Part shown: positions 48,901 to 51,900 of the stretch, piece by piece
Layout of the letters: each line of letters starts with the position of its first letter
How positions within the stretch are numbered: the stretch's first letter is position 1
Assembly: GCA_012026655.1 (NCBI GenBank)
Contig: JAAILG010002154.1
Span: 1-57,462, forward strand
Direction of reading: 5' to 3'
DNA: 57,462 bases
Source: Hydrolagus affinis
Lineage: Eukaryota
The notes under the pieces: generated by a model
What the model was told of the DNA's origin: nothing
Databases searched by the model: none
What the model saw: only the letters and a program-made list of their open reading frames with translations
Position numbers and translations under genes: made by a program

Positions 48901-51900
48901 TTTAATTTCAGTTATTCATACCTGGAGAAATTTATGGGAGACCAAATGGCGTTGCGCAGAGAAGATGTGTGGCTTCCGTTAATATCGTACAGAAACTCCT
49001 TGCTGACTGGGAATGACGACGACACAATGTCGGTAGTTAGTGGATATAGTAGCAGAGGCTCTTCTATGAGAAACAAGAAAACAAAACCAGCAACAGGGAA
49101 ACGAAAATTGCCAGAAGGTAAAACTCAGTGCTACAACTCTGCCATCTCTGGCTCAAACTATTTCATATGTTGTACTTGATGACATTTCTAAGAAATGTGC
49201 CAAAGATGCAAGTTAAAATCCAAATAGATATTGGTTAGGAAATATTCCCCCCCCCCACCCCCACAAAAAAAGTTTTCCAAAGAGCCTTTGTTAAAATCAC
49301 TCAAATTGTACAAAACTTTTTTCTTCCGTTCCCCGCCCCCTCCACTTCACACCTTATTTTCACTGCAGAGGATAAGTGAGAATGTGCGTCTAAACTCTCG
49401 CATCAACAATTTAAACACGACTACCAGAGTTTAAAGAAAATGTTTGTATGTTACTTTTTCCCCGATCGCCCATGTACATGCCTTAAACCGTATGTACATT
49501 TAGTACAGCATAGTGTGCAATATAGAATCAGCTTTCTAGCCCCACATTGCAATTGTTTACTTATTAGGCTTTACATTTGCCAAACAGTCTCGCCATATTT
49601 CTACTCCCCTGTCATTGTCTGTATGGTTTTTATTTTAAAATATTCAGTATGGCAATTGCATGATTTCCTGGCAATTAATAATAATAATAATCCTTGCATT
49701 AGATATAGCACTTTTCACGTCTTCTAGACGTCTCAAAGCGCTTCACAGAATATACTGTAAATGAATTGACTATATTTGTGGGTGAAATGCAGCAGCCAAT
49801 TGCGCATAGCAGTTGGCTCCCACAATAGTCTTGAAATGATTTATTATCTTTTTTTAAGACGGATTATTATTAGGCGTAATAATAATTGTAAGTTTTTATG
49901 GGCCTGCGCTTTAATACTCCACTGATGGTGGTCTATGTTTTAATTAGTTTAAAAAATGAACACTGGTGATCAATATCTTAGTTAACGTGACTAGTGAACC
50001 ATAACCATAGTGAAGATACTCCTCTTTAGAGTTGAGCTCAATTTGCCTCCACTTCCCTTCATGTCATTTGGCACAGTTTCTTTTGGAAGCAGGATTGCTG
50101 GGAATGTATTTGTGTGTGTGTGTGTCTGTGTATGTCTCTGTGTGTGTGAGCGCACATATATTTGTAGTTGGAGATCACCAGTGGGATGTACATACAAATA
50201 CAGTATTGAGCCCACATCAATATTTTTCATACATAAAGGGAATTGCATTAGTGAGCTCTTTGCACTCTGTTTTACCCTGCCCACCCCCCACCTCCCCCCC
50301 ACTCCCCCAAGCATTTTGAACTCCCACTTTACCGTGTAATAAGAGGCTGTTTTGTGTTAAAACACTGTTTGCATATGTTTAATGGACGGATAGTACAGGT
50401 TTTTTTACATTTCAGTGTGGACTGGACCAAATGCTCTTTCATGGTCTTATGACTCCAGTAAGTTTTTGTCTATCACTACAGTTTATAGTCGAATAATTTG
50501 AACTATTCAGAGTTAGAATCAAAATTTTACATTTTGTTAAGGAAAATATGATGTGTGTGTCTGTGAGTGAGTGTATATTCAGTAGACCCTCGCCGAACGC
50601 GGGGGTTACATTCCTGGAAAATAGTGCATTCGGTAAAATGGGTAAGCTTAATAAGTGATGGGGGGAAAAGGGGGTTAGGGGAATCCATCCACTTGCGCAA
50701 AGCCGGAGTCCTCCCAAATGCGTATGTGCGGGGCCAGCCAGCGTGTATACAAAAATTTTACTTGCGTTATACAAAAAAGTGCCGCATTTATTTCTTCGCA
50801 CACATACAGGCGAATCCACACTTGAGAAAGTCGCGTTCAGCAAGGGTTGACTGTGTGTATCAATATATATCTATATATATCTATATATATATATATAGAT
50901 ATATATATTAACTTTGTTTAGATTAAAGGGGCTTTATTTATAACCTTCACAATTCAATTGATTTTATTATAACTTTTTTGTAACAATGGTACCTTTCACC
51001 TGAATGAAACGTTTCAAAGTGCTTCCAAAACAAGATTAATCTTTGATGCTATGTATTTTTTTAAAACAATGTATTGTTGCCATTGTTCTTCCACAATAGA
51101 AAAGGGAGCAGAAAATTTAGGAATCTGTAGCATTTTAAAAAAAAGTTTCAAAGATAAATAATACATGATCACTAACAGTACACTGAACACAGTTCAATTT
51201 GTATGTTCCGATTGATACGATACAAAAGTACATTTCTAGAAAGCCTTTCACGTCGGGAGGACGTCCCAAGGTGCTGGGAGGTTAAATAGATTAATTACCA
51301 TTGTATTTGGGGAAGTATGAACTATTACAGTAGTTACTTGTGGCACCCTGTATTTTTAGAACTTGGATTAATCAGCTGAGTTTATAACCGCTACGATTTC
51401 TACACTTCTTTGTCATGAAGGCAGTCAATCAATAGTTCATATCCATTTTATTCTTTCTGTTGGGAGATGGAAAAGTAACAGTTTTCTTCTTTTGGGAGGA
51501 AACCTGCTCCTCTCAGTTGTGGAGGCAGGAATTCATACATTAGAATATTATTTCAGTTAGCCAGGACAGCCAGCCAGTTTGTATACATGTCGTTGTAAAG
51601 TGGCTGATGGTTGAGAGGTGTGGCCTTCAGTCAGAAAATGCTGCTTATGGGGAAAAGATCCTAACTAGAACAACAACACAAAATTACATAACTAGAGCGC
51701 CTTTCACGTCGGGAGGACGTCTCAAGGTGCTGAACAGTCAGGTCGGGACCCGAGAAAGGGAGAGGGGTAGGGGTGTGGGGAGGGAGAGAGGGCAGCAGAA
51801 GGCACGATCGAAGAGGAGGGTCTTGAAGGAGGCAAGGGAGGGAGCGAGGCAAAGGGACTGTGGGATGGTGTTCCAGAGTGTGGGGAGTGGGGTGTAGAAA

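Follow-up and report, generated by a model that had tools for sequence, protein, structure and literature searches.

A mostly skipped 42-nucleotide in-frame cassette exon in the STAG2 gene, so far seen only in chimaeras

The C-terminal tail of SA2, the product of STAG2, is already known to be altered by an optional in-frame exon. This is exon 32, also named exon 30b, which corresponds to exon 31 of the mouse gene and to exon 31 of STAG1 (passages of PMC10238091, PMC4605304, and PMC10984984). Passages of the same three papers describe the human exon as mostly skipped (PSI 20.4% in HCT116), as repressed by TDP-43, and as altering the RNA-binding partners of SA2. Another described class is that of the neural microexons dependent on SRRM3/4, of which 74-79% have a UGC between the branch point and the AG, although this element is not strictly needed (excerpt of bioRxiv 10.1101/2024.09.17.613571). 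On the protein side, SA-SCC1 has a conserved essential surface that binds F/YxF ligands, including CTCF and SGO1 (excerpts of PMC10279526 and PMC10238091).

The STAG2 gene lies on the + strand of the window, by which is meant the whole stretch of 57,462 nucleotides that was analysed, and its coding exons occupy about 27.7-54.8 kb. A further optional exon had been predicted from the letters alone in the intron at 49118-52043 (2926 nt). It follows an acceptor AG at 50414-50415, is 42 nt long with phase 1 on both sides, has no stop codon, and encodes 14 residues followed by a T. The AG, the GTAAGT donor, the length, the frame, and the lack of a stop in the original prediction were all exact when the sequence was read again. 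The features of the region are as follows.

48912..49117, + strand: upstream constitutive exon, 206 nt, ending in KRKLPE codons, phase 1; covered and joined to 52044 in four of four runs
50272..50558, + strand: conserved intronic island with the cassette at its centre; 13 or fewer differences from organism A over about 273 aligned letters
50379..50383, + strand: candidate branch point (yUnAy) at -37, predicted by motif scan
50392..50398, + strand: two extra AG dinucleotides (-24 and -19) between the candidate branch point and the acceptor, from a motif scan
50399..50415, + strand: U-rich tract with the acceptor AG; score 9.0 bits, higher than 20 of 29 real acceptors
50416..50457, + strand: 42-nt in-frame cassette exon, 14 residues; 14 of 14 identical in the C. 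milii records P0001, P0002, and P0008
50458..50463, + strand: cassette donor GTAAGT; 8.4 bits; probable use, from the alignment of contig X2 record 8, which ends exactly at 50457
50552..50574, + strand: UG-rich run 95 nt downstream of the cassette; may contain silencer sites
52044..52230, + strand: downstream constitutive exon; two acceptors in tandem, 52044 and 52047, differ by one residue, and protein records show each form
53061..53168, + strand: known alternative exon (human exon 32 or 30b), distinct from the cassette; in 43 of 44 chondrichthyan records

The AG and GT are canonical and of ordinary strength as splice sites, and they enclose a stop-free segment with a length divisible by three and equal phase on both sides. 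A scoring matrix was built from the 29 acceptors and 29 donors of the same STAG2 gene, with the real sites scored leave-one-out. By this gene-own matrix the cassette acceptor exceeds 20 of the 29 real acceptors, and the donor exceeds 15 of the 29 real donors. No other AG..GT pair of 12-60 nt in 27913-53685 has both scores this high, and controls for equally strong pairs gave none in the 5' 27.7 kb and one (26 nt) on the reverse strand. Shuffling the intron produced an in-frame, stop-free pair this good in 9 of 1000 cases, an optimistic figure since the cassette's own scores defined the strict cut; at a looser cut, the 25th percentile of real sites, the count was 123 of 1000. The splice-site sequence taken alone is therefore suggestive, and confirmation of the cassette rests on the identical peptide in Callorhinchus milii. 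Two further strong AG..GT pairs in STAG2 introns, at 46106-46140 (35 nt) and 32909-32940 (32 nt), shift the frame and could be poison exons or chance occurrences.

The cassette peptide is found unchanged in database records of C. milii. SA2 of this species gives the closest protein matches, with 65 of 68 and 54 of 61 residues shared in the two exons flanking the cassette, and the window species is accordingly likely to be another chimaera; the exon after the cassette thus differs at 7 of 61 residues and the cassette peptide at none of 14. A search with the downstream exon gave 99 proteins, enlarged to 197 by cluster look-ups. In three of the nine C. milii SA2 records the complete peptide, with the T after it, stands at this very junction, and there is no other carrier among the 197 records. 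The carriers are V9K834 (equal to XP_007891756.1, predicted isoform X1), XP_042196507.1, and A0A4W3JFN8; they amount to two gene models and one UniRef entry, which may share a single transcript source. Entries of the V9K series, such as V9K834, presumably derive from assembled transcripts. According to PMC3964593, which describes polyA RNA from ten C. milii tissues, assembled transcripts were deposited; V9K834 was linked to none of them. Among the remaining C. milii records, two of the nine are plain skip forms, and four have other short fillers that resemble model read-through. The version with the insert became isoform X1 in RefSeq and, later, its single model. The RefSeq models P0002 and P0008 contain the insert, whereas skipping prevails in the contigs examined, and compared with shark SA2 their start is about 66 residues later.

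Outside the chimaeras no carrier was found. The peptide is absent from the 34 readable of 35 shark and ray SA2 records, which represent 13 species and cover 15 of the 68 members of the largest shark/ray cluster; many of the records without it are X1 isoforms of 1260-1261 residues. It is also absent from all 153 bony-vertebrate SA2 records. Pattern reading failed for 21 of the 197 records; the region is missing in 5 of these, and the other 16 were inspected visually. A junction-focused search of full-length proteins gave 23 matches with the same three C. milii carriers, and a search for the region among proteins shorter than 665 residues gave no candidate. Occurrence across vertebrate STAG2 genes, which the original prediction offered as one of its tests, therefore holds for C. 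milii, where the peptide is identical, and for no species outside the chimaeras among the 197 records. The peptide has so far been seen only in chimaeras as judged from protein records, a statement that does not extend to shark introns. At the downstream exon, the tandem NAGNAG acceptor (52041-52046) yields 98 records with an A and 37 without, and both forms occur in sharks, rays, ray-finned fishes, reptiles, and C. milii.

The intronic island around the cassette is under constraint, as judged from its alignment with organism A, a C. milii-like relative of the window species. The island at 50272-50558 has 13 or fewer differences in an estimated total of about 273 aligned letters (at most 4.8%), compared with 53 of 515 (10.3%) in four other alignable pieces of intron; the Fisher p of 0.004 applies to post hoc boundaries and one species pair, with 28 exon bases included in one comparison piece. 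Divergence is 6.4% and 7.1% in the adjoining exons, and 3.7% and 2.4% in the next two. If neutral divergence is 10%, all 14 residues together with the AG and GT would be kept with a probability of 0.028; if it is 15%, the figure is 0.004. At the island's own rate of 5%, the chance of 14 identical residues is 0.18, and for this reason peptide identity does not tell selection on the protein from a conserved RNA or DNA element. Constraint on the peptide is likely, and it is not separated here from constraint on RNA or DNA.

The cassette is single-copy sequence. The region 50330-50520 has one match in the genome in a search that skips very common words, and contig depth at the cassette is 16-41, whereas repeats elsewhere in this intron reach tens of thousands. 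An exonised transposon was ruled out on these grounds. High-copy repeat fragments lie at 49676-49813, 51217-51277, 51673-51870, 52884-53012, and 53275-53348, with the cassette outside all of them, and these fragments reach depths of up to hundreds of thousands in organism A contigs. An intronic RNA gene was also rejected, since the five weak Rfam matches are all far below the gathering score and none covers the cassette. No unusual RNA fold was detected at the cassette (z 0.5). The matching intron of a STAG1-like paralogue (270 nt) has no look-alike: its two AG..GT pairs (45 and 12 nt) show no likeness to the cassette, and the best blastn match (E 0.04 for 14 nt) lies outside that intron.

RNA-derived contigs show that the skip form dominates in the relative. 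Four of 14 listed runs were examined, all of them contig sets of organism A and not of the window's own species; organism A and C. milii share the three residue-changing differences found in the upstream exon. None of the listed runs is on record as RNA, and the four bear the label 'RNA?', yet they join exons at intron ends. Their contigs drop rare short variants and carry no inclusion level, and their tissues are coded. The skip junction 49117>52044 is present in all four runs, at depths of 365, 198, 25, and 60. In runs X3 and X4 no contig covers the cassette, and a contig of X1 passes through the donor unspliced. In X2, the contig of record 8 (depth 23.7) leads from the upstream exon through the intron, and its alignment ends exactly at 50457 with 30 letters left over. 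The contig of the downstream exon starts at 52044 in X2, compared with 52042 in X1; a third path entering it without a terminal AG would be expected to give this difference. Three entering paths sum to a depth of 242.7 against 235.1, and two paths to 219.0. Roughly one in ten X2 molecules appears to have the cassette donor joined to 52044, the donor-ending contig making up about 11% of the skip-plus-donor depth. Since this contig retains the upstream intron, in which the frame stops at 49177, it represents an intermediate or a retained-intron RNA and not a productive mRNA. Unspliced pieces of the intron 49118-52043 occur in both X1 and X2 at about a tenth of exon depth. Of the junctions by which the exon was originally expected to reveal itself, the inclusion junction 49117>50416 is absent among the 15 of 281 joints listed for the four contig sets, and the contig end at 50457 points to donor use in one of the four runs. 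The included form appears in three of the nine C. milii protein records.

The cassette is likely to be regulated. The extra AGs at -24 and -19 likely weaken the acceptor or compete with it. In the proposed mechanism the donor would be recognised well, and the acceptor, with its short U tract, two competing AGs, and distant branch point, would be the slow step. A slow acceptor would make skipping the default, and this fits the X2 contig as well. Inclusion would then be switched on by a factor of a particular tissue or stage that acts through the conserved flanks. A motif scan found no RBFOX or QKI site within 150 nt of the cassette, and no known regulator motif is prominent. UG runs are located about 270 nt upstream (about 50100-50150) and 95 nt downstream. 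TDP-43 represses the neighbouring human exon 30b (passages of PMC4605304), and by this parallel a UG-binding silencer that might act on the cassette is a lead only.

The insert adds a distinctive peptide to the SA2 tail. It falls at residue 1023 of P0002; four truncated SA2 constructs from crystal structures stop short of it, at about residue 996. The prediction of a two-Trp peptide adjoining the KRK cluster in the tail was borne out, and the tail is left out of most crystal constructs. The expected absence of the peptide from human SA2 also agrees with PDB chain 7zjs_A, which has six other residues at this place. The insert is acidic-aromatic, with two Trp, one Tyr, and five Ser/Thr/Tyr, and it separates the basic KRK cluster from an acidic EES block in a polar tail. 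A pattern scan found an S-x-x-E site, of the CK2-type class of site motifs, that is present only with the cassette. LIR, KEN, D-box, and CDK patterns are not found in the insert. The F/YxF pattern [PFCAVIYL][FY][GDEN]F.{0,1}[DANE].{0,1}[DE], taken from an excerpt of PMC10238091, has no match in P0002, P0004, or P0011. A single-sequence AlphaFold model of P0001 is too poor to weigh (mean pLDDT 41, tail coil about 26). By analogy with exon 32, which acts on the RNA-binding partners of human SA2, the insert would provide a short module for binding or phosphorylation.

Overall the evidence somewhat favours a STAG2 cassette that is mostly skipped and likely included in a minority of transcripts or tissues, that likely arose in the chimaera line, and that was likely selected because its 14 residues matter. 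The complete identity of the peptide, the lower divergence of the island, and the identical junction counted for this reading. A less likely but serious alternative is a leaky or cryptic exon inside an element that is conserved for another role, as an enhancer or in splicing control of the neighbouring exons; its use would be rare, harmless because the frame is kept, and its peptide would have no job. Such an exon would explain the dominance of the skip form in all four runs and the inclusion joint missing among those listed. It also agrees with flanks as conserved as the exon, with the probability of 0.18 for 14 identical residues at 5% divergence, with the in-frame pairs in 123 of 1000 shuffles at the loose cut, and with the lack of a recognised binding motif. 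However, both splice sites score like real ones and form the best pair in the introns of the gene, the conserved island is centred on the exon, and RefSeq chose the included form twice, as isoform X1 and as the later single model.

The remaining explanations have lower probabilities. It is improbable that the exon is older than the chimaeras and is unannotated or lost in sharks and rays, with the six extra residues of human SA2 as a remnant. Protein records miss rare isoforms and only part of each cluster was covered, and human SA2 (7zjs_A) has GMQLSL and then T at the 49117/52044 junction, residues absent from the non-mammal records seen. However, none of the 34 readable shark and ray records from 13 species has the peptide, despite many X1 isoforms of 1260-1261 residues, and non-mammal bony vertebrates have an A or nothing at the junction. 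The human span c.3054-c.3278, taken here to be a single exon, exceeds the 206-nt exon of the window by 18 nt, which fits a shifted donor. The boundaries c.3054 and c.3278, which span 224 nt, are given in PMC3959811. The human lengthening at this spot is probably a separate event. Slightly more doubtful still is that the donor and not the peptide is the working unit, so that donor use with the upstream intron kept gives a stop-bearing RNA that is degraded or stays nuclear and tunes the SA2 level. The only donor-ending contig does carry the upstream intron, with its first stop at 49177 and about 11% of skip-plus-donor depth, but a splicing intermediate gives the same contig, and unspliced intron reaches a comparable depth in both X1 and X2. 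A working donor would also leave the kept frame, the good acceptor, and the fully spliced C. milii records unexplained. Very improbable is the most far-reaching proposal, in which an exon derived from the intron in a chimaera ancestor gave a W-S-Y-acidic peptide that folds onto SA2-SCC1 and competes in cis with CTCF, shugoshin, or WAPL; if it were true, splicing alone would switch cohesin partner choice in certain tissues.

If the cassette is selected, it offers a modest example, one that can be dated, of an exon restricted to one lineage within a chromosome protein that is otherwise very conserved. The crown chimaera split is placed at about 173 million years (PMC11521621). The 6-7% exon divergence suggests that the window species is outside Callorhinchus, and in that case the exon has been unchanged since about that split. 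It would be a second splicing switch in the SA2 tail, at a junction that was probably lengthened separately in human SA2, and it has no direct bearing on human SA2. Caution is needed with the SA2 model of C. milii in RefSeq, a frequent reference for cartilaginous fishes, since it is the minor included form. Searches of the literature on STAG2 splicing, exon 32/30b, microexons, and the elephant shark found no description of the 42-nt cassette. The main text of a study of tissue splicing in C. milii (bioRxiv 10.64898/2026.09.05.749416) has no mention of STAG2, and its supplements may list the exon. The cassette is new to the literature searched, yet it was already present, unremarked, in C. milii database models.

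Comparison with the described systems shows partial likeness to each. The cassette resembles the SRRM3/4-dependent neural microexons in being short and frame-keeping, with conserved flanks and a weak 3' architecture. Microexons are usually limited to 3-27 nt, and at 42 nt the cassette lies above this size. It differs in having no UGC between the candidate branch point and the AG (UGC occurs in the upstream intron only at -46 and -138), and it shows no sign of vertebrate-wide conservation. The peptide W-S-Y-D..EE is loosely like the F/YxF ligands, with an aromatic-x-aromatic arrangement followed by acidic residues in a disordered region. It departs from the pattern by W for F/Y, S for G/D/E/N, Y for F, and S at the preceding position, and it would lie in cis. 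Like exon 32 of STAG2, the cassette is an in-frame optional exon in the C-terminal tail of SA2. Unlike the cassette, exon 32/30b lies one intron downstream (53061-53168), measures 108-111 nt, is basic, and is vertebrate-wide; identity of the two was rejected by this mapping. The exon at 53061-53168 is found in 43 of 44 chondrichthyan records and is joined in three of four runs in the rows listed, so it is likely the default form here, and it is mostly skipped in human cells.
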